This document shows positions 1 to 17,015 of a stretch of 38,348 nt of DNA, one piece after another. This stretch comes from Candidatus Omnitrophota bacterium (GTDB lineage Bacteria; Verrucomicrobiota; Kiritimatiellia; SS1-B-03-39; UBA6053): positions 1-38,348 of the forward strand of contig JBLIND010000010.1 of assembly GCA_047639095.1 (NCBI GenBank), read 5' to 3'. A model generated the notes under the pieces. The model was not told the origin of the DNA. It saw nothing but the letters and a program-made list of their open reading frames with translations, and did not search any database. Made by a program: the position numbers and the translations under genes. Numbering within the stretch: the first letter of the stretch is position 1; every line of letters begins with the position of its first letter.

Positions 1-1
1 A

Positions 2-424
2 GGTGCTGCGCGTGCTTCCCTGGAAAAGAAAGTCGACCTGGAGCGAAAAATTGCTAGATTGCAACCGATGGTTGACGAGGGGCGGAATACCGCGGAAGGG
101 CTAAAAACCGAACTCTACGCCATTCAACTTCGCCTCGATGAGTCGAATCGCAAAATGAGTGAGTTGGAGACCCGGAAACGTACGGTCGATGCTCGTGAGG
201 CCCTGGAGAAGTTGCGGGAACAGCTTGGAAAGGAGAGCGCACAGGAAGCCGACGAAGAGGATGTCCTGGTGCGCGAAGTGAAGGTGGACCTGGAAAAGCG
301 CCTGCGTGAGCTGGAACAGCCGGGAGCAGAGTTTGACCGCGTTGAACTGCAGGAAAGGCTCGATGCCGAAATTGAGACCTTGGGGGAAAAAAATGTATCG
401 GATGACAAGGGAACGAACGACTAA
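2..424 (+). CDS. PspA/IM30 (Vipp1/LiaH)-family coiled-coil protein, C-terminal part; the 5' end lies outside the window
   Basis: The frame is open from nt 2 (GAARASLEKKVDLERKIARLQPM...) to the stop at 424, so the gene starts upstream of the window. The protein is strongly charged, heptad-like and coiled-coil (ELETRKRTVDAREALEKLREQL...). It sits immediately upstream of NfeD/YqiJ and flotillin genes, as in the known PspA-YdjH-YdjI type operons. The family assignment rests on composition and context, not on an alignment. Confidence 0.45.
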   Translation, partial: GAARASLEKKVDLERKIARLQPMVDEGRNTAEGLKTELYAIQLRLDESNRKMSELETRKRTVDAREALEKLREQLGKESAQEADEEDVLVREVKVDLEKRLRELEQPGAEFDRVELQERLDAEIETLGEKNVSDDKGTND

Positions 425-435
425 CGGAAGCCACC

Positions 436-1101
436 ATGCTTGAGCTATTAAAAGAATCCATCGAAATCATCAACCTGCCTTTCACGGCCTTGTTCGGTCT
501 GTGCATCCTGTATTGGTTGATGGTCATCGTAGGTGTGTTGGACGCCGAGATGTTCGACGTTGATGCCGGGGACATCGACCTGGATGCCGATGTGGATGCA
601 GATGTGGATGTCGACGGCGATGTGGATGGCCATCATTCGGGTTTCGGAGAGGTGTTGGATTTCATCACCGACGGCGACGCGCCCATTATGGTGCCGGTCA
701 CCTTGTTCACCGGGAGCATGTGGATATTCTCCGTGATGGGGAACTATTACCTGAATCCGGGCAACTCCAATCTGATCTCCGTGGGGATTCTTGCCGGGGG
801 TGGCGTCCTGGGTGTCATCATCATGAAGGTGCTGACGAAACCGGTTGCCGTACTCTACCGATTGATGAACAAGGATTACGACGCGCCGGCCGAGGTCGTC
901 GGCAGTCTGGGCTCCGTCAGTTCCATGCGCCTGGATGAACGTCTGGGTACGGTGAATGTCGAGACCAAGGGCGCCCCGATTCAATTGAACGCGAAGTATT
1001 TTGGTGGTCGCAGCCTGGACAAAGGTGCCCAGGTGGTCGTGACCGGATTTGATAAGGAAAACAACACGTACACGGTACAACCCGTAGAATTGGAGAGTTA
1101 A
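436..1101 (+). CDS. YqiJ/NfeD-like inner-membrane protein (flotillin partner with a C-terminal OB-fold)
   Basis: 221 aa with an N-terminal hydrophobic segment, an Asp-rich low-complexity linker (DAGDIDLDADVDADVDVDGDVDG), two further TM segments and a C-terminal beta-rich ~60 aa (GTVNVETKGAPIQLNAKYFGG...VVVTGFD) typical of the NfeD OB-fold. Its stop lies 1 nt before the flotillin ATG (1103). Confidence 0.6.
   Translation: MLELLKESIEIINLPFTALFGLCILYWLMVIVGVLDAEMFDVDAGDIDLDADVDADVDVDGDVDGHHSGFGEVLDFITDGDAPIMVPVTLFTGSMWIFSVMGNYYLNPGNSNLISVGILAGGGVLGVIIMKVLTKPVAVLYRLMNKDYDAPAEVVGSLGSVSSMRLDERLGTVNVETKGAPIQLNAKYFGGRSLDKGAQVVVTGFDKENNTYTVQPVELES
556..630 (+). repeat. Imperfect tandem 9-nt (GAT-GYG-GAT) codon repeat encoding the Asp-rich linker of the YqiJ-like protein
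   Basis: The sequence gatgccgatgtggatgcagatgtggatgtcgacggcgatgtggatggc gives D-A/V-D units. Confidence 0.6.
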
Positions 1102-1102
1102 A

Positions 1103-3091
1103 ATGATCATCCCTACAATGGGCATAATTCTGGAAGGGTTCCTGGTAACCCTGGCTATTGCTGTACTCGTCGTCGTCGGCCTCGTGCTGCTGATCGTAAA
1201 GTGCTATCGTAAAGTCGAGCAGGGGAAGGCGCTGATACGAAACGGCATTGGCGGAACAAAGGTCTCCTTTTCCGGCATGGTGGTCGTTCCCGTCTTTCAT
1301 AAACTCGAGGTGATGGATATCTCGGTCAAGCGGGTGGAGATTTTCCGCCACGGGGTGGACGGCCTGGTCTGTAAGGACAACTTGCGCGCAGACATCAAGG
1401 TGGCTTTTTTCGTTCGCGTAAACAAAACCAAAGAAGACGTGATGAAGGTCGCGCAGTTGCTCGGTTGCGAACGAGGGTCCGATCAAAAGGCTCTGGTGGA
1501 GTTTTTCGATGCTAAGTTTTCCGAAGCCTTGAAGACGGTCGGAAAGCAGTTCGACTTTGTGGAGCTCTACGAGGAACGCAACCGGTTTAAGGACGAGATT
1601 CTGCAAATCATCGGAACGGATCTGAATGGGTATGCACTCGACGATGCGGCCATCGACTACCTGGAGCAAACACCGCTCGACAAGATGAATCCGTTTAACA
1701 TCCTGGATGCGGAAGGTATCAAGAAAATCGAACGCTTGACCTCCGCCGAAATGTTGCTCGCCAACCAGATTAAGGTGGATCGAGAACGGACCCTGGTGAA
1801 GCAGAATAACGAGGCGAAGGAAGCCATCCTTGAACTGGATAAGCAGCTGGCGGAAGCCACCGAAAAGCAGAAGCGCGAAATTCTGGAAATCCAGGCCCGT
1901 GAGAATGCCCAGGCTGCCGTGGTGGAGCAGCAGGAATTTCTCCGGTCCGAAAACCAACGGATTATGACCGCCGAGGAACTCGCGGTCGCCGAAGAAAACA
2001 AGAATCGCCAGATTATTGTTGCGGCCAAGAACAAGGAGCGCACGGAAGCGGTGGAAACCGAACGCGTCGAACGAGATCGCCTGCTGGAAGTGACTGAGCG
2101 CGAGCGGGTGGTCACCCTGGCCGACATCGAAAAGGAAAAAGTGATCGAGGTCGAAAAGCGGAATATCCAGGATGTGATCCGCGAACGCGTGGCGCTGGAG
2201 CGCTCGGTTGTGGAGGAAGAACAGAAGATCCTCGATGTGGAAGCCTTCGCCTCTGCCGACCGGACCAAGCAGGTCTCGATCACGAATGCGGAAGAGCTGG
2301 CCCAGTCCGCCCTGGTCAAGCGTGTCCAGGACGCCGAAGCCCAAAGGCTGGCTTCTGAGAAAGAAGCTGAGCGAAAGGTCATCGAAGCGGATGCGATGCT
2401 CAAAGCGAGCGAACGTGAAGCCGAGGCCATGAAAATGCTGGCGGATGCGCACGCAGCCGAAAGTGCGGTCAAAGGCATGTCGGATGTCCAGGTGATGGAA
2501 GCGGAAGCGGAAGCCCTGCGTAAGCATGGCCTGGCAGAAGCCGAGGTCATGGACAAGAAGTACGTGGTCGAAGCGGCCGGCATCGAGGCGAAAGCGGAAG
2601 CGATGAAGAAGCTCGATGGCGTGGGTAAAGAGCACGAAGAATTCAAGCTGCGCCTGAACAAAGATCTCCAGGTGGACCTGCAGAAGATCGATGTAAGTCG
2701 TCTGATCGCGGCCGAGAATGCCAAGATCGTGGGTGAAGCGCTGAAGTCGGCCAACATCGACATCGTGGGCGGCGAAAGCACCTTCTTCGAGCAGATCGTG
2801 AATGCGGTTACGGCCGGGAAGAAGGTCGATCGCTTCGTGAACGAAAGCGAAGTCCTCACCGATGTGCGGGAGGCCTTGCTCGGCGGCGATATGGGTACCC
2901 AGCTAAAGGGCCTGGTGAAGCAATTCGGGGTGAGCAGCGAAGACGTGAAAAACCTCTCGGTCTCGGCCTTGATCGGCCGCTTGTTGGTGGATGCCAAGGG
3001 CGACGACAAGAACCTGCTGAACCAGATGTTGGAAGCGGCGAGTAAGTTCGGCGTGGCCGAGCAGCCGGCCAGTAAACTCCTCGGGAAGTAA
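1103..3091 (+). CDS. Flotillin-like SPFH/Band-7 protein (YqiK/FloT family)
   Basis: 662 aa with an N-terminal TM helix (ILEGFLVTLAIAVLVVVGLVLLIV), then an SPFH core (GGTKVSFSGMVVVPVFHKLEVMDISVKRVEIF...DNLRADIKVAFFVRV) and a long Ala/Glu-rich coiled-coil tail (EA/ER repeats). This is the classic flotillin architecture. A good RBS and the NfeD partner lie upstream. Confidence 0.8.
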   Translation: MIIPTMGIILEGFLVTLAIAVLVVVGLVLLIVKCYRKVEQGKALIRNGIGGTKVSFSGMVVVPVFHKLEVMDISVKRVEIFRHGVDGLVCKDNLRADIKVAFFVRVNKTKEDVMKVAQLLGCERGSDQKALVEFFDAKFSEALKTVGKQFDFVELYEERNRFKDEILQIIGTDLNGYALDDAAIDYLEQTPLDKMNPFNILDAEGIKKIERLTSAEMLLANQIKVDRERTLVKQNNEAKEAILELDKQLAEATEKQKREILEIQARENAQAAVVEQQEFLRSENQRIMTAEELAVAEENKNRQIIVAAKNKERTEAVETERVERDRLLEVTERERVVTLADIEKEKVIEVEKRNIQDVIRERVALERSVVEEEQKILDVEAFASADRTKQVSITNAEELAQSALVKRVQDAEAQRLASEKEAERKVIEADAMLKASEREAEAMKMLADAHAAESAVKGMSDVQVMEAEAEALRKHGLAEAEVMDKKYVVEAAGIEAKAEAMKKLDGVGKEHEEFKLRLNKDLQVDLQKIDVSRLIAAENAKIVGEALKSANIDIVGGESTFFEQIVNAVTAGKKVDRFVNESEVLTDVREALLGGDMGTQLKGLVKQFGVSSEDVKNLSVSALIGRLLVDAKGDDKNLLNQMLEAASKFGVAEQPASKLLGK

Positions 3092-3125
3092 TACTGTCTC
3101 GCGAGGACCTTTAAGACAGGACATC

Positions 3126-6100
3126 ATGGCTGACACCACACAGGAACCGGATAACCAGCAGCAGGTCGCGGAGCAGACCCATCTCGAAGGAGGTACCTAC
3201 GAGATTATCCGCAACCGGCTGCTGGGGCACGGCAAGGAGCTCCAGGCCCGTCTGGCGGAGCTGAACCAGGCACGCCAGGACGTTTTTGGATCGATTGAGA
3301 CGATACTGAAAACGACCGAGCGCGTAAGCACGGATAACAATTGTATTCCGCGCGATATCGCCCAGGTAAAAGGTGGGTTCCTGTTCGGGTATAATGTCAC
3401 TCTGGGCCTGAAGACTGAAACGCAGATCAAGGATGTCTTCAGTGAATACGCGTTGGCCGATGGCGAGCTGCGCGAAGTCGAGCTGAATCTGCTGGACGAC
3501 CCGCAGTTCAAGGTGGATTTCCAGAACCTGTATAAGTTCTACCGTGAAACCCGTTTTGTTAAATTCGCCCGGAGGGGACCCAACCTGTACATGGTGTTTC
3601 GAACCGGTAAGAGCCTTGCGGATACCAAGACCTTCAAGTGGGCGATCCTGGATGGTGGGCTGAAGTACCTGGATAACCGGAGTGATCACGAATATACTTG
3701 GCCGTCCCAGCATCAATTCGAGTGGAAACGGGCCCATCGCGATATGCATCGCGGCGGTTTGCATCCGCATATCTCGTTGGACGACATCTGTTTTGTCGAA
3801 TCGGTCGGTGGTGATATCACCATCAAGATCGAAGACAATACCGCGAGCGGGGAAGGCCTTTATGCGGAACCCGTGGAGAATCCGGATCAGACCCTCGACG
3901 ATGCGGAGGTCTTCTATTCGGTGCTCGGGCATATCGTCTTGATCAAGATTCGCCCATACCAGGAAGATGCCTTTCGCTACTTTGTCTACAATGACAAAAT
4001 CCAACGGGTTAACCGAATCGATTCCATTGAGCACACCTGCGTGCTGCTGCCGGAGAATCACGGCTTCATATTTGCCAACGGGTATTACCTGGCCGATGGA
4101 GAAACCAAGATTTTTGATAGTGCGCCCGGGGCGATGCTGTTTGAACGCCGCGTCGATGCCCAGAACGGCGAAGATTTTCTCTACGTGTTCTACAATCGGG
4201 AATACGGTGGGTATGTGCTGCTCCAGTACAATATGATTCGCCAGCAGGTGGATCCGCCGATCGTTTGCAGTGGCTACACGGCATTCGAAAATGGCGAAGT
4301 CTTTCTTTTCAAAGCGGAAGTCGAGCCCCAGAAACATCATGCGATTCAAATCTGGCAGACGCCGTTTACCGGGCCCAATTTTGTGCCCGAGGTCCGGACG
4401 GATTGCTACCTGTATAAGTTGGGGAATAAAGCGGTGGTGCGTTGCATGGCGGAATGCCAGGGCGTGGTCAATCTTCTGAACAAGGAAGAGACCTACGCGA
4501 ATCTGTACAGCGACATCGCTCGCCAGGCTGCATCCGTGGTCGATAACTACTTCTGGTTGAATACGGATGACGCGTACCATCTGGATGCACCGCTGATTGA
4601 AATCAAGACGGCTGCTGATGCTGCGGTGGAAGAATTTGCCAAGGTCACCCGCCTGAAATCCAACACCCGGAAGGAAATCAATCGGGTCTCGGCGATGGTT
4701 CAAGAGTTGATTCGCTCGATGGATCATGAGGTGCTGCGGGAAATCGGACAGTTTGTCAGCCTGTTGACTGGCTTGAGGGGTGCGCGGGGAGAGATCATTG
4801 CCACCAAGGATCTTCGCTATACCAATATCGAAGCGGTTGAGGCTTTGGAAACGGATGTGACGGAGCACACGGAGGTGTTGTCACAGAAGTGCGTGGAATT
4901 TCTGCTGCGCCAGGATGCCATGGATCCTTACCGGGCCCAGGTTAGCGAGGTAGATAAGCGGATCCGGAAACTCAACAAAGGCAGCGATGCGAAAGCTGCC
5001 GCTCAACAGATTGATGCCTGCGCAAGTGAGCTGGAAATGCTGATTGAGATCGTCAGCAATTTGAAAATTGATGATCCCACCCAGACCACCCAGATCATCG
5101 ATGGCATCTCCGACATTTACACGGAAGTCAATCAGCTGAAGGCAGCCTTGAAAAACCGCCAGATGGAACTGCTGAAGACCGAAGGCGTCGCGGAATTTAA
5201 TGCCCAGTTGAAGTTGCTGAATCAGAGCGTAGTCAGCTACTTGGAAATTTGCGACACTCCCGAAAAGTGCGACGAGTATGCCAATCGCGTGATGGTCCAG
5301 ATCGAGAGTTTGGAAAGCCGCTTCGCGGATTTCGATGAATATGTGGTTGAACTCACCGACAAGCGTGAGGAGCTCTACAGCGCGTTTGAGAGCCGTAAGG
5401 TACAGTTGCTGGAGAAGCGCTCGCGTCGGGCCAACACCCTGGCTACGGCCTCGGATCGCATCCTGAAAGGCGTTCAGCATCGAGCTAACGCACTGAAGTC
5501 GGTGGCGGAGATCAACGGGTACTTCGCGTCGGATCTGATGATCGAAAAGCTGCGGGACCAGATAGCCGAACTGAGCCTCTTGGGCGAATCCGTGAAAACG
5601 GATGACATCCTCACTCGGATCAAGACGATCCAGGAAGATGCGGTTCGGCAACTGAAAGACCGGGCCGACCTGTTTGAGGACGGCGAAAATATCATTCGGA
5701 TTGGATCGCATAAGTTTTCCGTCAACAAACAAGCCCTCGAGCTGAGTACGGTCCACCGGGATGGTGAGCTGTTTTTCCACCTGAACGGGACCGGGTTCTT
5801 TGCAGCCGTTGAGGACGAAGTGTTAACCAGCGTTCATGCGGTCTGGGAGCAGGAGGTGCTTTCGGAAAACGGCGATGTGTATCGGGCGGAATATCTGGCC
5901 TATCAACTGATGCTGGCCTGGCGTGATGACAGTGGAATATGGGATCCCACGCTGGCAAAGTTGGACGACGCGGGCTGGCAGGGGAAAGTCCAGGCTTTCG
6001 CGGCTCCCCGGTATGCTGAAGGGTATACCAAAGGCGTGCACGATCATGATGCGGCACTGATCCTCCATGCGCTGAAAACCTTTGATGAAAAACTGGGTTT

Positions 6101-8417
6101 GCTTCGATTCAGTGTGCCGTCGCGTGCTCTGGGCTTGTACTTCTGGCATGTGCAAGCCGATGAGGCCTTCGAAGCTCGAATGCTGGCCAATATTCGAAGT
6201 ACCCACCGAATACGTAAGGCGTTCGGCGGTGCAATTCCTCCTGCGGAAGTGCTGGCGGAATTGGAGCAAGCCATCTCGACCTTTGCCGAGCCCTTCACCT
6301 GCTTTAACTTGCGCCATGCCACCGATGCTGCGAGATACCTGTTTGAAGAGCTTGGCGAAGAAACACGTCATGTCATGAGTGCCCGGGCTTCCGACATTAA
6401 TCGCAAATATGACGAGACTATGAAGCGGAAACGGTTTTCTGAACCGCTGGAAAAAATTCTGGATCCCGTGCGATCTTCCCCCGTGGATCTCTACCGCATT
6501 GTGCGTGAATGGTTGGATGGTTTTGTTCGAGAGCATGGCGAAGCGGGAGATGCTGCGTATGTCGATGAGGCCGTGGTGATCTATCTGCGTGATGATTTTC
6601 AGCATCGCCTGACCATTGAGCAGGAAGCGACGGTGACGGTGGCGGAGTTAAAGGGCAACCACCCTCGGATTGACGCGAACCGTCTGATCCTGAATTACCA
6701 GGACTACATGGATCGACTCCGCCAATTCAGCTCGGAAGTGGTGCCCATGTACGAAACCTTCGTACAGCGAAGCCGCGAATTGACGGCCACCTTTACCAAA
6801 GAGCTCAAGCTCGAAGAATTTAAACCGCGTATCCTGTCTTCGTTCGTACGGAATCGCCTGCTCGATGAAATTTACCTGCCCTTGATTGGCAATAACCTGG
6901 CCAAGCAGATCGGGGCCGCGGGCGACAGCAAGCGTACGGATCGTATGGGCATGTTGCTGCTGATTTCGCCTCCGGGGTACGGAAAAACCACCCTGATGGA
7001 ATATATTGCGAATCGCCTGGGGCTTACCTTTGTGAAGGTGAACGGACCCGCCTTGGGACATGACGTGACCTCGCTGGATCCATCAGAAGCGCGGAATGCG
7101 TCGGCTCGGGAGGAGCTGAAGAAGCTGAATCTCGCCTTTGAAATGGGTGATAACATCATGCTGTACCTGGATGACATCCAGCATACCCATCCGGAGCTGC
7201 TTCAGAAATTTATTTCACTCTGTGACGGTCAGCGCAAAATCGAAGGCGTTTACAAAGGCGTAAGTCGGACCTACGACCTGCGGGGCAAAAAGGTCGCGGT
7301 AGTGATGGCGGGTAATCCCTACACGGAAAGCGGCGATAAGTTCCAGATACCCGACATGCTCGCCAACCGCGCGGATACCTACAATCTAGGTGACATCATC
7401 GGGGACAACGACGAAGCCTTCAAGCTAAGCTATATCGAAAACATGCTGACCTCGAACCCGGTGCTCAACGCCTTGTCCCGCCAAAGCCGGTCGGACATCT
7501 ATGCCATGGTGAAAATAGCCGAAACCGGAAGTCGGGATGGCGTGGAGTTCGAAGGGAATTATTCCGGAGATGAAATCGAGGAGTATACGAACACCCTGAC
7601 CAAGCTGTTGCGTGTGCGCGATGTGATCCTGAAGGTCAACGAATTGTATATCAGTTCGGCGGGCATGGAAGAGGCATATCGGGTTGAACCCTCGTTTAAA
7701 CTCCAGGGATCGTATCGGAATATGAATCGCATCGCGGAACGCGTGTTGCCGGTGATGAATGACGAGGAGCTGAATTCCCTGGTGCTCTCTTCATATGAGC
7801 AGGATTCTCAGACCCTGACCACCGGTGCTGAAGCAAATATGCTCAAATTCAAGGAGCTCATTGGCTGGTTGAGCCCGGAAGAAGCGCTGCGCTGGGATGA
7901 GATCAAAGGCAAGTTCCGGAAAAATCAGTCGATGTTCGGGATCGAAGCCGGAGATAAGATCGGCATGGTGATTGCCCAGATGGCTTCCTTCGCCGATGGC
8001 TTGGAGAATATACGCGCGGCCCTGGTTACGGGTTCATTGTCCGAGCAAAAGGACGCTGCCGGTCTTTCTCCGGAAATGCTTCAGCAGATTCAGGTGATCC
8101 TCGAGAGCCTGCGTTCCGGCAAGGAGCAGGAAGAGGTTCAGCACGAAGTGGCAACCCGCTTGCCTGATGCAATCAGTGCGATGATGGAAAACCAGTTTCA
8201 GTCGATGCAGACCTGGCTGGATCCCGTGCTCGCGACCTCAAAGCAGAATACCGATTACATGCGGGGGCTGATTGGTAATTTTAACGTCATGGTCGATGGA
8301 TACAACGATGTCTTGCGACAGTTGAAAGAGGTATACTTTCCAGAAATCGATCCGAAGATGAAAAAGGCTGATCCCTCAACCGATTCCGATGTGCTATCCA
8401 CACCACCGAAAAACTAA
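3126..8417 (+). CDS. Giant (1763 aa) protein with an internal MoxR/McrB/dynein-clade AAA+ ATPase module; function unknown
   Basis: A continuous ORF with no internal stops. It lies 35 nt after the flotillin stop on the same strand, with a short hairpin (CTGTCT..AGACAG) in the gap. Walker A LLLISPPGYGKTTLMEYIANRLG is at nt ~6960-7000, Walker B IMLYLDDIQH at ~7160-7185, and the sensor/Arg-finger-like VVMAGNPYTESGDKFQIPDMLANRADTYNLGD at ~7300-7390. The ~1270 N-terminal and ~330 C-terminal residues have no motif I recognise. The long antisense ORFs overlapping it (3111..4868, 4881..5780, 5823..6605 on the minus strand) lack any such features and are taken as spurious. Confidence 0.75.
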   Translation: MADTTQEPDNQQQVAEQTHLEGGTYEIIRNRLLGHGKELQARLAELNQARQDVFGSIETILKTTERVSTDNNCIPRDIAQVKGGFLFGYNVTLGLKTETQIKDVFSEYALADGELREVELNLLDDPQFKVDFQNLYKFYRETRFVKFARRGPNLYMVFRTGKSLADTKTFKWAILDGGLKYLDNRSDHEYTWPSQHQFEWKRAHRDMHRGGLHPHISLDDICFVESVGGDITIKIEDNTASGEGLYAEPVENPDQTLDDAEVFYSVLGHIVLIKIRPYQEDAFRYFVYNDKIQRVNRIDSIEHTCVLLPENHGFIFANGYYLADGETKIFDSAPGAMLFERRVDAQNGEDFLYVFYNREYGGYVLLQYNMIRQQVDPPIVCSGYTAFENGEVFLFKAEVEPQKHHAIQIWQTPFTGPNFVPEVRTDCYLYKLGNKAVVRCMAECQGVVNLLNKEETYANLYSDIARQAASVVDNYFWLNTDDAYHLDAPLIEIKTAADAAVEEFAKVTRLKSNTRKEINRVSAMVQELIRSMDHEVLREIGQFVSLLTGLRGARGEIIATKDLRYTNIEAVEALETDVTEHTEVLSQKCVEFLLRQDAMDPYRAQVSEVDKRIRKLNKGSDAKAAAQQIDACASELEMLIEIVSNLKIDDPTQTTQIIDGISDIYTEVNQLKAALKNRQMELLKTEGVAEFNAQLKLLNQSVVSYLEICDTPEKCDEYANRVMVQIESLESRFADFDEYVVELTDKREELYSAFESRKVQLLEKRSRRANTLATASDRILKGVQHRANALKSVAEINGYFASDLMIEKLRDQIAELSLLGESVKTDDILTRIKTIQEDAVRQLKDRADLFEDGENIIRIGSHKFSVNKQALELSTVHRDGELFFHLNGTGFFAAVEDEVLTSVHAVWEQEVLSENGDVYRAEYLAYQLMLAWRDDSGIWDPTLAKLDDAGWQGKVQAFAAPRYAEGYTKGVHDHDAALILHALKTFDEKLGLLRFSVPSRALGLYFWHVQADEAFEARMLANIRSTHRIRKAFGGAIPPAEVLAELEQAISTFAEPFTCFNLRHATDAARYLFEELGEETRHVMSARASDINRKYDETMKRKRFSEPLEKILDPVRSSPVDLYRIVREWLDGFVREHGEAGDAAYVDEAVVIYLRDDFQHRLTIEQEATVTVAELKGNHPRIDANRLILNYQDYMDRLRQFSSEVVPMYETFVQRSRELTATFTKELKLEEFKPRILSSFVRNRLLDEIYLPLIGNNLAKQIGAAGDSKRTDRMGMLLLISPPGYGKTTLMEYIANRLGLTFVKVNGPALGHDVTSLDPSEARNASAREELKKLNLAFEMGDNIMLYLDDIQHTHPELLQKFISLCDGQRKIEGVYKGVSRTYDLRGKKVAVVMAGNPYTESGDKFQIPDMLANRADTYNLGDIIGDNDEAFKLSYIENMLTSNPVLNALSRQSRSDIYAMVKIAETGSRDGVEFEGNYSGDEIEEYTNTLTKLLRVRDVILKVNELYISSAGMEEAYRVEPSFKLQGSYRNMNRIAERVLPVMNDEELNSLVLSSYEQDSQTLTTGAEANMLKFKELIGWLSPEEALRWDEIKGKFRKNQSMFGIEAGDKIGMVIAQMASFADGLENIRAALVTGSLSEQKDAAGLSPEMLQQIQVILESLRSGKEQEEVQHEVATRLPDAISAMMENQFQSMQTWLDPVLATSKQNTDYMRGLIGNFNVMVDGYNDVLRQLKEVYFPEIDPKMKKADPSTDSDVLSTPPKN

Positions 8418-8438
8418 CCTGCTACGTAAAAGGAAAAG

Positions 8439-8864
8439 ATGATGAAGTCATTTTCCGACCTGCCTGCTGAGATTCGACTGAGTCATTTCAAATTTGTCGT
8501 TGCTGCATCAGGCGCCGATAGCGATCTCACTGAGGAGGAGCGTAGCGTGCTGGGATTTGTTTCACGGAAGTGGGGGCTGTCTCAAACGGAGGTTGATCAG
8601 GTGTACCGAAATCCTGCGGTCATCGAATTCGTGATTTCCGATAGCCGGGAGGTGTGTTTTCACCAGCTATACGATCTGGTGGAGATGGCGATCATCGACA
8701 GCAAACTGAAGCAGGCGGAAATGCAAATGTGCCTGGGCTACGCAGCCCAGTTGGGATTCCCGGAAGACGCCGTCGATACGGTCATCCAGGGGATTCTCGA
8801 AGGTAATCAGGCCGGAAAATCCGAAGAGGACATCCAGGCCGGACTGATGGCGCGATTGGCGTAA
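8439..8864 (+). CDS. TerB-like (tellurite-resistance TerB / DjlA N-domain fold) small all-alpha protein
   Basis: 141 aa, 21 nt after the giant gene's stop, with an RBS-like aaaaggaaaag upstream. It carries a TerB-type signature repeat (VVAASGADSDLTEEERSVLGFVSRKWGLSQTEV matches A-x-ADG-x5-E-x3-L...LGLS, and a second degenerate copy MAIIDSKLKQAEMQMCLGYAAQLGFPED). The family call is from memory of the motif and has not been aligned. Confidence 0.5.
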   Translation: MMKSFSDLPAEIRLSHFKFVVAASGADSDLTEEERSVLGFVSRKWGLSQTEVDQVYRNPAVIEFVISDSREVCFHQLYDLVEMAIIDSKLKQAEMQMCLGYAAQLGFPEDAVDTVIQGILEGNQAGKSEEDIQAGLMARLA

Positions 8865-10451: not shown

Positions 10452-12557
10452 CTACTCTACCACGATGCGTAGGTATTTTCTCCGCTCGTTCTGGGTCTGC
10501 AAGGTGAGCTGGAGCATTCCGTTTACTTGTTCGATCGTATAATTCGATAAGGGTTCATCGGTCCAGGTTCCGGAAAGGTCTGTCGTTTGCTGGAGGCGAA
10601 GTTGCCCGGGATCGGTTGCTGCGGGAACGAGCACCTCAAAAACCAGGTTGCTGAAGGCATTGCTGAAGACGACATCGCTCAACGAGGGTGGCGGATCGGT
10701 GACCGCGAGAGAAAAAACCGGTCCCCATTCGAGTGAAAAATCATCCCAGACCTGCGCCCGCATATCGAGGGCGTAGGTGCCAGGCGTGTCAGATGACCAT
10801 GAAAAGTTATCGCTATTCGGAACGGCCATCATGGTCGAATTGGTCAATTCCTGCGCATCAGATAAGAGGATTGAATCGATAAACCATCCCAGGTGATCCG
10901 CCGTCCCGACGAAATATACACCGGCCCGACGGTAAACAAAGCGCAGGCGGATGGCCTGACCAGCGTAGGCGTTAAGTGGAACCGTCCGAGTGATGAAATT
11001 GGATTCGCCCGGACCATCTGAACCAGCTTGTTCATAGATTGAATTCCAACTGATTCCCTCATCTGTCGAGACTTCCACGAGGGCAAATTGGGTGGTGGCG
11101 GCCCACCGGAGTTGGCTGCTGAAACTCAACTCGCAGCCCGCTCCCGGAAGAATCACTTTGTCCCATTCAATTTCGTGGTCATCCAGCGGTGTTCCGCTTG
11201 GATGTGCGAGGTGGAAGCTGTGACTGCCCGCTTGAACAACGTTGCTGTTGTGTACCTCATAGGTTCCATCCGTTCGGATGATGATGTTGTCTGTGGTTTC
11301 GGCATCCTCTCCGGATAAGAGGGCCGGCTGACTTAGTCTAACCTGATAGCCGGAGGCAAAGTCCACTTCCGGGTGGGTAAACGCCTGCGGAATGCCGGTT
11401 GAGAGATGGGTGGGTCCAGCGACTGTGAGTTGAACCGTATCCGGACCCAATTGAGATGGGTCGAAGACCGTTACTGTGTAGTTGTATGATTCCGCCGCTC
11501 CGTTTCGGATTATGTTGCTGATTGCGATGGTGTAGGTGGTGTCGACACCCAGGGTGGGCCACTCCGCGAAAAATGCATTGGGGTCCATACTCGCAGGATG
11601 CCAGACCATGGTATTCTCGCCGACCATGGGATCCCCGATGGACGAGCGATGATCGATTACCAGGGGGATGCCTGCGCCAGTTGGGCCCTGCATGCTCACT
11701 ACGGCGGCGGTGAAATCTCCGTCATCGAGCGAAAAGGACCAGCGAGTAGGTGTGATCGGATTTGGGAAATATCCGGGTGGTGGCCAGGCAATGAAAGCTT
11801 CGCGTGTAGTCGGGCGGGGGAGCCCGCCGTCACCGCTGTTAACGACCAACAGACAGTTTGCGGATGGATAACTTCCGCTTGCCGGTACATCACCGCTTGC
11901 CATGGTTTGCGTCTGGGGAAAAAGAATCCACCGCCGATGACCGACACGCGCATTGTTGCTGCCGTTATCCCGCGTCTGACTGCTCAATGCTTCATATCCG
12001 ATATTGCCCAACGAGAGGTTGGATCGCGCAGCTGCCGCCGCACCGATCGCGGAATAACAGAACCAGCTCGGTGGTGGGGAGTGGCTGAGTGCTTCATTTC
12101 GGCTGAACATCAATGCCGCGGCCTGACACTCGACAAGCGCCGCTGGGTTAAACGAAACATCGGCCGGAACACCTGCCAGTGCGCGCGTGGCATTGATTCG
12201 TCGGAGTACCGCGTCCAGAAAGGCGCTCGAAGACTCTCCGGGGATGCAGGCATCCACATCACCGTTCCAACCGATGGGTGTGCCGTTTGAACTGCTGTAG
12301 ACCGCATTGTAAAACGCGCGCACCTCTTCACGGCTTAAGGTATTTATGAACGGGAATCCACCAGTAGCCAGTGGTGCTCCGCGACGGCGAACCTGGTCCG
12401 AGGCCGCAGTCCGTTCAACCGCTACTCCATGGCGAGGTTCCATGGGACGGAGGCGCGGTGGCGTCTGGGCTTGAGACTGGACAATAAACAACCCGGCAAG
12501 CAGGCTGAGGCCGTACCCATTTAGATGCTTCTTTCGAGGCCGAACGGTGGTACCCAT
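10452..12557 (-). CDS. Secreted protein with an N-terminal CAP/SCP/PR-1-like domain and a large beta-rich C-terminal region
   Basis: 701 aa with the signal peptide LSLLAGLFIVQSQAQ. CAP-like blocks: VLRRINATRALAGVPADVSFNPAALVECQAAALMFSRNEALSHSP and ARVGHRRWILFPQTQTMASG (the bacterial SCP-like GHRR motif). The remaining ~450 aa is Ser/Thr/Gly-rich and beta-like. It is convergent with the upstream sulfatase and divergent from the next one. Confidence 0.55.
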   Translation of the reverse strand: MGTTVRPRKKHLNGYGLSLLAGLFIVQSQAQTPPRLRPMEPRHGVAVERTAASDQVRRRGAPLATGGFPFINTLSREEVRAFYNAVYSSSNGTPIGWNGDVDACIPGESSSAFLDAVLRRINATRALAGVPADVSFNPAALVECQAAALMFSRNEALSHSPPPSWFCYSAIGAAAAARSNLSLGNIGYEALSSQTRDNGSNNARVGHRRWILFPQTQTMASGDVPASGSYPSANCLLVVNSGDGGLPRPTTREAFIAWPPPGYFPNPITPTRWSFSLDDGDFTAAVVSMQGPTGAGIPLVIDHRSSIGDPMVGENTMVWHPASMDPNAFFAEWPTLGVDTTYTIAISNIIRNGAAESYNYTVTVFDPSQLGPDTVQLTVAGPTHLSTGIPQAFTHPEVDFASGYQVRLSQPALLSGEDAETTDNIIIRTDGTYEVHNSNVVQAGSHSFHLAHPSGTPLDDHEIEWDKVILPGAGCELSFSSQLRWAATTQFALVEVSTDEGISWNSIYEQAGSDGPGESNFITRTVPLNAYAGQAIRLRFVYRRAGVYFVGTADHLGWFIDSILLSDAQELTNSTMMAVPNSDNFSWSSDTPGTYALDMRAQVWDDFSLEWGPVFSLAVTDPPPSLSDVVFSNAFSNLVFEVLVPAATDPGQLRLQQTTDLSGTWTDEPLSNYTIEQVNGMLQLTLQTQNERRKYLRIVVE

Positions 12558-12671
12558 ATGCTGAGTTTAAATCCGCCAGGCTTCATTGTATAGGCCGTTC
12601 TACTTTTAGACGTTCCGACTTGGCTTGGATACGGAGATTGTTAAAAGTAATTGGATTCAGTGGAGACCCTT

Positions 12672-14806: not shown

Positions 14807-15907
14807 ATGCGCCGATTATTGATCACCATCCACGCCTCTTTGATCCTGCTGCTCGTCGGCTGCGATACGGTGCCCGCTCCCGTCTCGCGCCCCTTGCCTG
14901 AAGGCGAAGGTGCGCACCCGAGTCTGGGGCTTTCACCTTTCGAACCGGTCGACCGCGCCCATACCCAGGAGCCGGGGACGACCGACATTATTCACCAGGC
15001 TGAATCGCTTTTAATTCCTTACCGCTTGCGCAGCCTGCTCGAGCTGACGGGCCGATGGAGCAAGGTTCGTTTGCTACCTGCTGGTTCGCGTACAGCTGAC
15101 TGGCGCGTCGAGGGCCGGATTCTCCGCTCGGATCCAGATGGTATTCAGTTACGCATGCGTGTGTTGGATCAAGAGAACCGTCTCTTGCTGGAAAAGGAAT
15201 ACGCGCATAACCCGGCAAAAGGTGAGGCCCTGTTTAATCCGCTGTTTGATGCGATCATCTCCGATCTGAATCAGCTTCGTTTCCAATCCGCACCGAATGA
15301 GGACCTCGCGCGGGTCCGTTTTGCATCGGATCTTTTGCCGGAGGTGTTTTCAGGCTACCTGGGCGAAACGCCAGAAGGACACACCACGCTGCGCCGCATG
15401 CCTACTCAAGACGATCCGGTATATCAGCGGATGCAGTTGCTCTACACTCGTGAAGCCAGCCTGGTCGACGCCATGGATGCGCACTATGGACGGTATTACG
15501 AAGCCATCGAAAAGCCGTATACGATCTGGCGTGAAGCCGTCAGCGGCGGAGTGAATAAAATGAGCCGCTATGAGAAGCGTTCGTGGTTGGATCCGTTCCT
15601 GCTGATCGCCGGCGAGCTGACCAGCGGCGGTGGACTGTTCGTCGAAGCCGCAGGTGGGCAGACGGCTGCGGACAAGGTCTATGAGAAAGGGCGCGACTGG
15701 TCTTCGGGCTATGGCGAGAAAGCGCTTCATCTTCGGAATGACCTCGATCGGGCCGGCATGCTGGTGACCGCAGAAATGAAGCCATTTACGGTGGAGATTC
15801 AGGGCAAGGTTGAATCGCTGAGCGGAACCGCGGCCGAGCAGTACAAACAATGGCGCGACCTGCTGGGGAAGATGTACACGAAAGAAACCGGAATATCCAT
15901 CGAGTAG
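14807..15907 (+). CDS. Hypothetical lipoprotein
   Basis: 366 aa. The N-terminus MRRLLITIHASLILLLVGCDT has a lipobox L-V-G-C. The rest is soluble and mixed alpha/beta with no recognised motif. Confidence 0.55.
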   Translation: MRRLLITIHASLILLLVGCDTVPAPVSRPLPEGEGAHPSLGLSPFEPVDRAHTQEPGTTDIIHQAESLLIPYRLRSLLELTGRWSKVRLLPAGSRTADWRVEGRILRSDPDGIQLRMRVLDQENRLLLEKEYAHNPAKGEALFNPLFDAIISDLNQLRFQSAPNEDLARVRFASDLLPEVFSGYLGETPEGHTTLRRMPTQDDPVYQRMQLLYTREASLVDAMDAHYGRYYEAIEKPYTIWREAVSGGVNKMSRYEKRSWLDPFLLIAGELTSGGGLFVEAAGGQTAADKVYEKGRDWSSGYGEKALHLRNDLDRAGMLVTAEMKPFTVEIQGKVESLSGTAAEQYKQWRDLLGKMYTKETGISIE

Positions 15908-15916
15908 GAAAAGCCT

Positions 15917-16324
15917 ATGTTAAAGCCCATCCTTTTTCTTTGTCTGCTCGTTTTGCCGCCGAGCTTCGGAGAGGTTCCCGTGCCACAGCATGCGGTCGCA
16001 ATTTTGAGCACGATCCAGACCCGGCAAGGGCTCTGTGTGCTCGTCGGCAGCAAGGGTGATCTTTGCGCGCACCTCGACGCACGCAGTCAGCTGCTGGTTC
16101 TGGGCTTGAGCACGAACCGAGAAGATCAGGTGCCGTGCCAGCAAGCGATCAACCAGGCCGGGGTGAGCGGGCAGGCCCGTATCATTTTGTCGCCAGACGG
16201 GGCACTACCACTCGTACCCCATCTCGCAAATGTGATCGTGGTCGAAGACAAACGGTTCATCAAGCGGGTCGGCATGGAAGAGGTGATGCATATCCTGGCG
16301 CCGGGAGGCGAGTTGGTGGCCTGA
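15917..16324 (+). CDS. Small secreted protein with a degenerate class-I methyltransferase-like fold; possibly the N-terminal piece of a disrupted larger gene
   Basis: 135 aa with the signal peptide MLKPILFLCLLVLPPSFG. The blocks LCVLVGSKGDLCAHL...LVLGLS...ARIILSPDG...VIVVED...MHILAPGGELV follow Rossmann-MTase motif order, but the GxGxG is degenerate. It ends in TGA at 16322. It shares a frame with the PQQ ORF downstream. Confidence 0.35.
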   Translation: MLKPILFLCLLVLPPSFGEVPVPQHAVAILSTIQTRQGLCVLVGSKGDLCAHLDARSQLLVLGLSTNREDQVPCQQAINQAGVSGQARIILSPDGALPLVPHLANVIVVEDKRFIKRVGMEEVMHILAPGGELVA

Positions 16325-16373: not shown

Positions 16374-17015
16374 ATGACTGGACACATCCTTAGCACGGAC
16401 CGGACGGGCATATGGTGTCCAACGATCGTGAAGTTCGGTTTCTTCTCGGCCTTCGGTGATGAAATGGATCTCGATATCAATCTGGCCGGACCGGGGTTTG
16501 TCTCGGTCACCCGCCGCCAGGCACGCGGCATCGTCTTTCTGCGTGAACGCGATGGAAAGCTGCTTTGGGAGATCACGGGTAAACCCGTTGACCCTCTGAA
16601 GAGAGAGATGCCCTATCTCTGGACCACCCTGGTGGACGGCGAACGCTGGTTCAGTTCATGGAAATACGATCCCCTGATCGGAGAGGTGAAAGGGAAACTG
16701 CCTGTGGGACTGCCAACCCAGAGTTGTACGCCTTCGGTACTGGTGGGGAACTTACTCACCCAGAGTCGCCGCAGCGCGTACACCGAATTACCTCTCTCAG
16801 CAGATCCCCAGGACAAAGCCCGGACCTTCACGTTTGAAGCCGCCCGAGGTGGGTGTATGCAAGGCATGGTTCCCGCGAATGGCATGTTCTATACTTCGCA
16901 GAATAACTGTGAGTGCGCTCCGGGTAGGTCTAGGGCTTCCTGGGGTTTGGACCGGAAACCTTGCTGCCCGGCGGGGAAGCCTGGTCCGCGAAACGCCCCA
17001 CAGAAGCAGGCGTGA
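16374..17015 (+). CDS. Hypothetical protein (weak call; may be part of a disrupted MTase-like / PQQ-propeller gene)
   Basis: 213 aa. There is no signal peptide and no motif I recognise. It overlaps the start of the PQQ ORF by 55-80 nt in a different frame. The call rests only on ORF length in a high-GC context. Confidence 0.25.
   Translation: MTGHILSTDRTGIWCPTIVKFGFFSAFGDEMDLDINLAGPGFVSVTRRQARGIVFLRERDGKLLWEITGKPVDPLKREMPYLWTTLVDGERWFSSWKYDPLIGEVKGKLPVGLPTQSCTPSVLVGNLLTQSRRSAYTELPLSADPQDKARTFTFEAARGGCMQGMVPANGMFYTSQNNCECAPGRSRASWGLDRKPCCPAGKPGPRNAPQKQA

Follow-up and report, generated by a model that had tools for sequence, protein, structure and literature searches.

The five genes that open the stretch of DNA analysed here, the entire 38,348-bp contig of a Kiritimatiellia metagenome-assembled genome (MAG) which we refer to as the window, very probably are the Kiritimatiellia copy of an operon type described in 2024 (Ravi, Anantharaman, Aravind, Gennaro et al., mSystems, PMC11237479), in a form that is devoid of CesT/Tir and carries a TerB-like gene as an extra. 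The fourth gene codes for a giant ATPase of 1763 amino acids, and the explanation that we favour, namely a known operon type equipped with an ATP-driven remodeller, appears to us reasonably likely as a whole. The original prediction of five co-directional, closely packed genes is borne out exactly: the open reading frames (ORFs) all lie on the plus strand, separated by gaps of 1-34 nt (11, 1, 34 and 21 nt in order), and together with their internal features they are as follows.

2-424, plus strand: 3' part of pspA (PspA/IM30, bacterial ESCRT-III), C-terminal 140 of 226 codons; from Pfam PspA_IM30, the twin contig L033 and a PspA profile.
436-1101, plus strand: YqiJ/YuaF-type (NfeD-like) membrane protein with transmembrane (TM) segments at its N-terminus, a D-rich acidic loop and a soluble beta domain at its C-terminus; from hhalign against YqiJ.
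1103-3091, plus strand: YqiK-type flotillin with N-terminal anchor, SPFH/band-7 domain, long Ala/Glu-rich coiled coil and flotillin C-terminal region; from hhalign against YqiK.
3126-8417, plus strand: giant cytoplasmic ATPase, 1763 aa, made up of a beta-propeller, helical bundles/coiled coil, a helical domain, one AAA+ module and a helical C-terminal region; from Pfam and models.
3303-4358, plus strand: predicted beta-propeller of the giant ATPase (beta-rich, residues 60-411, inside DUF3686).
4407-5672, plus strand: long helical bundle/coiled coil (residues 428-849), including DUF7902 (residues 597-680; nt 4914-5165).
6933-7385, plus strand: AAA+ alpha/beta core; from invariant motifs, model and Foldseek.
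AAA+ motifs: Walker A GYGKTT, nt 6975-6992; Walker B LDD, within 7164-7184; sensor-1 AGNP, within 7305-7328; Arg in NRAD, within 7359-7385.
8439-8864, plus strand: small soluble TerB-superfamily protein, 141 aa, lineage-specific tail gene; from Pfam TerB via relatives.

The operon class of Ravi et al. [quoted passage not shown] For Dokdonia donghaensis (ANH61663.1) the supplement of that paper lists CesT_Tir, YqiJ-YuaF, Band-7+Coiled-coil+Flotillin and Betapropeller+Coiled-coil+AAA-ATPase; shortened forms without PspA are described as widespread in bacteria and archaea, and forms without the dyad are allowed. The window locus displays the features of this type, with PspA/IM30 at its head, a multi-TM protein of the YqiJ/YuaF type, a flotillin and an AAA+ protein with N-terminal beta-propeller and coiled coil, and the same order and domain content of the PspA, YqiJ-type, flotillin and giant genes was recovered also in Bacteroidota loci. 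It differs from the published operon in the lack of a CesT/Tir gene, in the additional 3' gene for a TerB-like protein and in its host, a member of the Kiritimatiellia. A CesT profile found no match in the window or in L033, and TerB goes unmentioned in PMC11237479. Because the same operon and domain string were already in that paper, the system is not undescribed, as had been supposed; moreover, its giant protein carries the Pfam domains DUF3686 and DUF7902. The window locus is thus a member of a known operon family, without CesT and with a TerB-like tail gene.

How tightly do these genes belong together? We fetched 29 genome loci with the giant protein, 20 of which hold the full-length giant gene and DNA upstream of it. 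In all 20 the gene directly upstream, on the same strand as the giant gene, is flotillin-like, and in 18 of the 19 genome loci with room for it a YqiJ-like gene comes before the flotillin-like one. The same gene order is present in three more metagenomic loci, on the plasmid pQBR103 and on a Hymenobacter plasmid, and two loci that were reached from the flotillin side also contain the module, among them the complete genome of Kiritimatiellota strain B12222. Overall, the independent loci with upstream DNA represent about ten phyla (including Bacteroidota, Planctomycetota, Verrucomicrobiota, Kiritimatiellota, Sumerlaeota, Acidobacteriota and Pseudomonadota), and in 25 of these 26 the gene that immediately precedes the giant gene is flotillin-like; in 23 of 24 loci the flotillin gene is in turn immediately preceded by a YqiJ-like gene. 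The exceptions are L022, where only the AAA+ portion of the giant protein is encoded and flotillin is absent nearby, and L002, which lacks the YqiJ-like gene. PspA adjoins the module in 15 of 24 loci (~60%), and a CesT_Tir_1 gene precedes pspA in seven loci, all of them from Bacteroidota. Conservation of the neighbourhood, which the original prediction had named as a check, therefore is strong for flotillin and YqiJ and partial for PspA, and it fails for TerB.

The first ORF runs off the start of the contig. A near-identical contig from JGI, L033, reaches 1.3 kb further to the left and holds full-length pspA, preceded by a 266-bp intergenic region and then by a divergent alpha-amylase/CBM48 gene, which places the start of the operon at pspA. 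At the other end, a secreted sulfatase gene comes next after the TerB-like gene, with 91 nt between the two. Homologues exist for every ORF, with over 2500 known in the case of the giant, over 8000 in that of the flotillin-like and 448 in that of the TerB-like protein, so that none of the ORFs is a product of chance. Shine-Dalgarno-like purine runs are found ahead of genes 2, 3 and 5, and a weak one ahead of the giant gene. The absence of intervening terminators, which had been claimed, agrees with our finding no intrinsic terminator-like site in any intergenic gap, but the scan ran at or below chance and carries no weight; a consensus promoter scan of the locus, again at or below chance, is uninformative either way. 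Judged by its layout, the set of five genes looks like one operon.

The assignments of the first three products were upheld by profile comparisons. The pspA fragment in the window gives a weak match to Pfam PspA_IM30 (E 5e-5), whereas the full gene (L033:1306-1986) scores 40.1 bits against a gathering score of 33.9, as had been expected of it, and a profile of the giant-linked PspA proteins matches the fragment at 2.4e-21. Gene 2 has a weak match to Pfam YqiJ_N. An alignment of its family (16 orthologues) matches E. coli YqiJ over the full length (hhalign Prob 95%, E 2.6e-8); the profile search of the PDB yielded only YuaF at E 0.64. The protein has two hydrophobic segments, one N-terminal (residues 8-42) and one central (111-141), besides a D-rich acidic loop and a soluble domain at its C-terminus. 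For gene 3 the match of the family alignment to E. coli YqiK is strong (hhalign Prob 100%, E 6e-41, 31% identity over 389 columns including the SPFH domain), and homologues are named 'flotillin family protein' or 'YqiK' in the source databases. Then again, gene 3 finds no match in Pfam (Band_7, Flot) or NCBIfam even at E up to 10, contrary to the Band_7 hit that had been anticipated, and in the PDB, searched with the single sequence and with the profile, it finds only a coiled-coil match to QmcA. The YqiK profile match nevertheless identifies gene 3 as a YqiK-type flotillin that is missed by the Band_7 model. Its one hydrophobic segment is N-terminal (residues 1-39). The subfamily counts more than 8000 homologues with ~60% identity across phyla, and for the 120 listed no Pfam domain is on record; this flotillin subfamily exposes a gap in the family models.

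Genes 2 and 3 are homologous to E. coli yqiJ-yqiK and share their order and close spacing, but the E. coli pair has no adjacent pspA and no giant ATPase, and the flotillin of the window is ~110 aa longer than YqiK and, as said, escapes Pfam Band_7. Nor does the locus resemble a classical proteobacterial Psp regulon: the region upstream of pspA (L033:1040-1305) contains no match to a sigma-54 -24/-12 promoter, and pspA is followed by the yqiJ-like and flotillin genes and not by pspBC. Within the same 266 bp the 15-bp palindrome TTCCGAT-N-ATCGGAA occurs three times, twice in perfect form and once with one mismatch, in addition to a half-site. By chance 0.14 copies would be expected, and the entire 38-kb window has none. 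These palindromes probably serve as operators for a dimeric protein that regulates the operon.

In the giant protein residues 38-476 belong to DUF3686, to which Pfam gives the title 'ATPase involved in DNA repair' (E 4e-178), DUF7902 covers residues 597-680 (E 4e-27), and residues 1277-1400 match Pfam AAA and AAA_5 with similar scores, AAA_5 above its gathering score, so that the single AAA+ module and its AAA_5 match are confirmed. A characterised family would have spoken against novelty; a family there is, DUF3686, but no known function goes with it. The protein is free of hydrophobic segments. AlphaFold models, built on 54-sequence alignments (pLDDT 82 and 79), predict the order N-terminal helix, beta-rich domain (60-411), ~420 residues of long helical bundles, small beta domain, second helical domain, AAA+ core, and lid plus helical C-terminal region. 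The original prediction had asked whether the N-terminal part would form helical stalks or a degenerate second ATPase; the models give a beta-propeller followed by long helical bundles. The 54 homologues do not vary in GYGKTT of Walker A (1284-1289), in DD of Walker B (1349-1350), in the Asn of sensor 1 within AGNP (1397) or in the Arg within NRAD (1415), the last being a candidate arginine finger. With its ATPase motifs thus invariant, the giant probably is an active ATPase.

The more than 2500 full-length homologues (~50% identity) come from Planctomycetota, Verrucomicrobiota, Bacteroidota, Desulfobacterota, Gammaproteobacteria and others, and tblastn finds the giant protein also in Proteus mirabilis, Vibrio campbellii, Deinococcus, Streptomyces and the megaplasmid pQBR103 of P. 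fluorescens SBW25. Some copies are borne on plasmids or megaplasmids (pQBR103, the Hymenobacter plasmid and Deinococcus among them). At L022 (9950-12094) the giant is represented only by a 715-aa protein that matches its AAA+ part (residues 955-1650), and there is no flotillin in the vicinity; in L019 and L021 the giant gene is broken up into two or three ORFs, and in L016 the flotillin gene is split. These aberrations may be frameshifts, pseudogenes or errors of MAG assembly.

To which group of AAA+ enzymes does the ATPase belong? A Foldseek search of the PDB with the AAA+ part of the model has NorQ and CbbQ of the MoxR family on top, followed by MCM, RuvB and the second nucleotide-binding domain (NBD2) of ClpB. 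In the model a beta-hairpin (residues ~1371-1384) lies between helix 3 and strand 4, ahead of sensor 1, and no helix-2 hairpin is evident. The giant AAA+ module resembles the MoxR family (NorQ, CbbQ, RavA) in its fold, though the match is weak, in the xxNP sensor-1 motif and in the predicted hairpin before sensor 1; unlike these proteins it has no von Willebrand factor A (VWA) partner gene and carries ~1270 extra N-terminal residues with propeller and helical arms. The MoxR clade that had been proposed for it is consistent with the fold search, while sequence profiles by themselves cannot settle the placement. Phmmer matches to p97 and Rix7 in the PDB covered only Walker A to Walker B, and a placement in the classical AAA clade was dropped after the fold search.

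What would such an ATPase do next to a flotillin? PMC11237479, in which PspA-linked AAA+ ATPases are discussed, puts forward ATP-dependent membrane remodelling. Our own proposal, which we regard as a tentative one with odds somewhat short of even, is that the giant is a cytoplasmic remodeller of membrane assemblies formed by flotillin and YqiJ, and of those formed by PspA. Hydrophobicity predicts the giant and the bulk of the flotillin to be cytoplasmic. Anchored through its N-terminal helix, the flotillin would join its partner, the YqiJ/NfeD-like membrane protein, in a large SPFH oligomer at the cytoplasmic side of the inner membrane. The soluble giant, which probably forms a ring through its AAA+ module, would dock by its propeller and long helical arms on this SPFH assembly, or on PspA/ESCRT-III polymers at the same damaged patch, and ATP hydrolysis would drive the assembly, remodelling, dismantling or recycling of the scaffolds during membrane stress. 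As the linkage to flotillin and YqiJ is much tighter than that to PspA, the flotillin-YqiJ complex most likely is the primary partner.

Precedents for such a mechanism are the action of Vps4 on ESCRT-III, FtsH inside HflK/C cages and the MoxR remodellers, all of which we cite as functional analogies and not as family membership. PspA is an ESCRT-III homologue, and as in the case of Vps4 an AAA+ ATPase is here encoded beside a member of the ESCRT-III family, which suggests ATP-driven polymer remodelling. Unlike Vps4, however, the giant has no MIT domain, its fold is not that of the classical Vps4/p97 clade, and its linkage to PspA is facultative whereas that to flotillin is near-obligate. SPFH proteins form cages that are paired with AAA+ machines, as in HflK/C-FtsH, and the giant locus likewise pairs an SPFH-family scaffold genetically with an AAA+ enzyme; different from FtsH, the giant has neither a protease domain nor a membrane anchor, its similarity amounts to 35 columns, and the predicted topology is cytoplasmic and not periplasmic. 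A more far-reaching version, which we consider rather doubtful, would make the DUF3686 giant the first ATP-driven machine dedicated to remodelling or taking apart the cytoplasmic cages of flotillin (SPFH), a bacterial counterpart of what Vps4 is for ESCRT-III, which grips the cage by a clathrin-like arm of propeller and helical legs and couples flotillin turnover to membrane repair by PspA, with the TerB-like protein recruited in this lineage as a membrane-proximal adaptor or sensor.

Several points weigh against the explanation that we favour. Co-transcription is inferred from gene spacing only. The E-values of the NorQ and CbbQ matches are modest (about 1e-3, with TM-scores of at most 0.58 on the target), and by sequence the AAA+ clade is ambiguous: p97, RuvB and FtsH match around Walker A only (by hhalign ~43 columns for RuvB), and a RavA profile match spans 137 columns at a probability of 8%. 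MoxR ATPases usually act together with a VWA protein, but a VWA family was detected neither in the operon proteins nor in their neighbours. Finally, in the literature searched we found no mention of DUF3686 and no experiment on the giant ATPase or on the pairing of a flotillin with an AAA+ protein, the comparative paper of 2024 being the only work on the subject.

The tail gene has to be considered on its own, for it could be argued that the locus is a five-component system specific to the Kiritimatiellia, in which the TerB-like protein is integral and required. By itself the product of gene 5 scores 18.3 bits with Pfam TerB (PF05099), below the gathering score of 24.4 and thus short of the match that had been predicted. 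Yet an exhaustive HMMER search collects 448 relatives, mostly stand-alone proteins of ~140 aa, and 44 of 45 relatives match Pfam TerB (best 2e-16), so that by descent, as read from these profiles, gene 5 is a genuine member of the TerB superfamily. A word-index search for relatives had returned only the protein itself. The 21-nt gap to the giant gene, the good Shine-Dalgarno sequence and the lack of a detected terminator would fit an integral component, as would the general knowledge that TerB domains are thought to be membrane-proximal and the position of the closest relative (P0242, 50% identity), which in another metagenome is encoded 24 nt downstream of a canonical flotillin gene with Pfam Flot and Band_7 domains (L035:2-1426). 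That locus, in which the giant ATPase was not detected, hints at a loose association of TerB-like proteins with flotillins; a narrow-alignment metagenome scan for the TerB-like gene gave two loci, neither of them flotillin-linked. Against an integral role, a TerB-like profile run over all giant loci matches in the window and in its twin L033 only, which is the same organism and the sole locus sharing the arrangement, and a TerB-like gene follows the giant gene at none of ~30 other loci, including that of the cultured Kiritimatiellota strain B12222, where the slot is filled by the gene for an unrelated 116-aa protein. In the Planctomycetota this slot holds a PspA paralogue. The relatives of gene 5 are mostly found on short contigs or in unrelated contexts (the latter in three of four informative cases: next to an IF-2B-like gene, next to GCV_T, or isolated between opposite-strand genes). 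We therefore regard the five-component system as unlikely and TerB as wrongly included in the system by the original prediction: on the evidence of gene neighbourhoods the TerB-like gene is a lineage-specific add-on and not a conserved member of the module, although its tight spacing and the one flotillin-adjacent relative leave room for a lineage-specific accessory role that it may have.

A role in defence, also part of the original prediction, would have the giant sense infection and act through flotillin, PspA and TerB on the membrane in an anti-phage or abortive-infection response. PspA is, after all, the 'phage shock' protein, TerB domains are generally known from Ter stress and defence clusters, large AAA+ and P-loop proteins are common in defence systems, and copies of the giant occasionally reside on plasmids or megaplasmids. 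But the matches to PADLOC-DB 2.0 (IetA, mad8 and PDC-S48) are sub-threshold, confined to the Walker A region and weak (E about 1e-3), a giant homologue is absent from 50,697 phage records, and a fixed gene order with ~50-60% identity across phyla is unlike the patchiness of fast-evolving defence islands. Moreover, here and at other loci the flanks are housekeeping or sulfatase genes, the locus is without a nuclease or any further effector, and conservation of the TerB-like gene is lacking. This leaves defence very improbable. Least probable of all, in our judgement, is that the giant is a DNA-repair ATPase whose proximity to flotillin is incidental or reflects membrane-tethered processing of DNA. 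The idea draws on the title of DUF3686 and the name 'DNA repair ATPase' given to NCBI homologues, on weak RuvB_N matches and on a LexA-family regulator gene divergent upstream of the Bacteroidota operon. The similarity to RuvB, however, is limited to the short stretch around Walker A, neither a DNA-binding nor a nuclease domain was found, no paper was found that backs the database name, and a near-invariant operonic linkage to two membrane proteins across phyla would be unexpected for a repair enzyme.

Some features of related loci deserve mention. In Bacteroidota operons the divergent gene is annotated as 'LexA family transcriptional regulator' in Hymenobacter (L040:1589-2374, minus strand), and matching minus-strand ORFs of ~240-270 aa stand upstream of CesT or pspA in L003, L004, L009, L010, L015, L016, L021, L025 and L029, whereas in Kiritimatiellota strain B12222 a gene for a CII-like (Phage_CP76) helix-turn-helix (HTH) protein lies right upstream of pspA (L041:8326-8796). 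This suggests that the regulators of the operon are dedicated and lineage-specific. Two Planctomycetota loci (Sedimentisphaerales, Phycisphaerae) have two PspA genes upstream of the module and a third right after the giant gene, the paralogues being located at L001:5654-7219 and 15319-15987 and at L032:343-1820 and 11922-12611; the third occupies the slot that the TerB-like gene holds in the window. On pQBR103 (L039, record 85-98 kb) the triad of YqiJ-like, SPFH and giant genes is placed behind an operon of PspA, rhomboid, DUF2491, DUF350, DUF1190 and glutathionylspermidine synthase, an arrangement by which a single transcription unit of this well-studied megaplasmid brings together two of the PspA operon classes that Ravi et al. 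distinguish. Apart from the operon, the window encodes at least three sulfatases, an SLC12-type permease, the NAD-dependent DNA ligase LigA, a Rieske/glutamate-synthase-like protein and a leucine-rich repeat (LRR) protein. Three ORFs among the downstream sulfatases have no Pfam match (10452-12557, minus strand, 701 aa; 14807-15907, plus strand, 366 aa; 16374-17015, plus strand, 213 aa), and Rfam and tRNA scans of the window gave no match.

Taken by itself, the window locus adds little beyond documenting the module in Kiritimatiellia, in a form that lacks CesT and ends with a TerB-like gene. It does expose two problems of annotation: 'DNA repair ATPase' is a misleading name, and Pfam Band_7 overlooks a subfamily of flotillins. 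Of wider interest is the question of how flotillin scaffolds assemble, turn over and couple to PspA/ESCRT-III repair. For the energy-dependent step that is missing in this picture, the giant ATPase, which is very large, highly conserved and nearly always shares an operon with a flotillin and the NfeD-like partner of the latter, would be an obvious candidate, and since the family is present in the tractable Proteus mirabilis, Vibrio campbellii, SBW25 with pQBR103 and Bacteroidota, the hypothesis that it remodels these scaffolds is directly testable.

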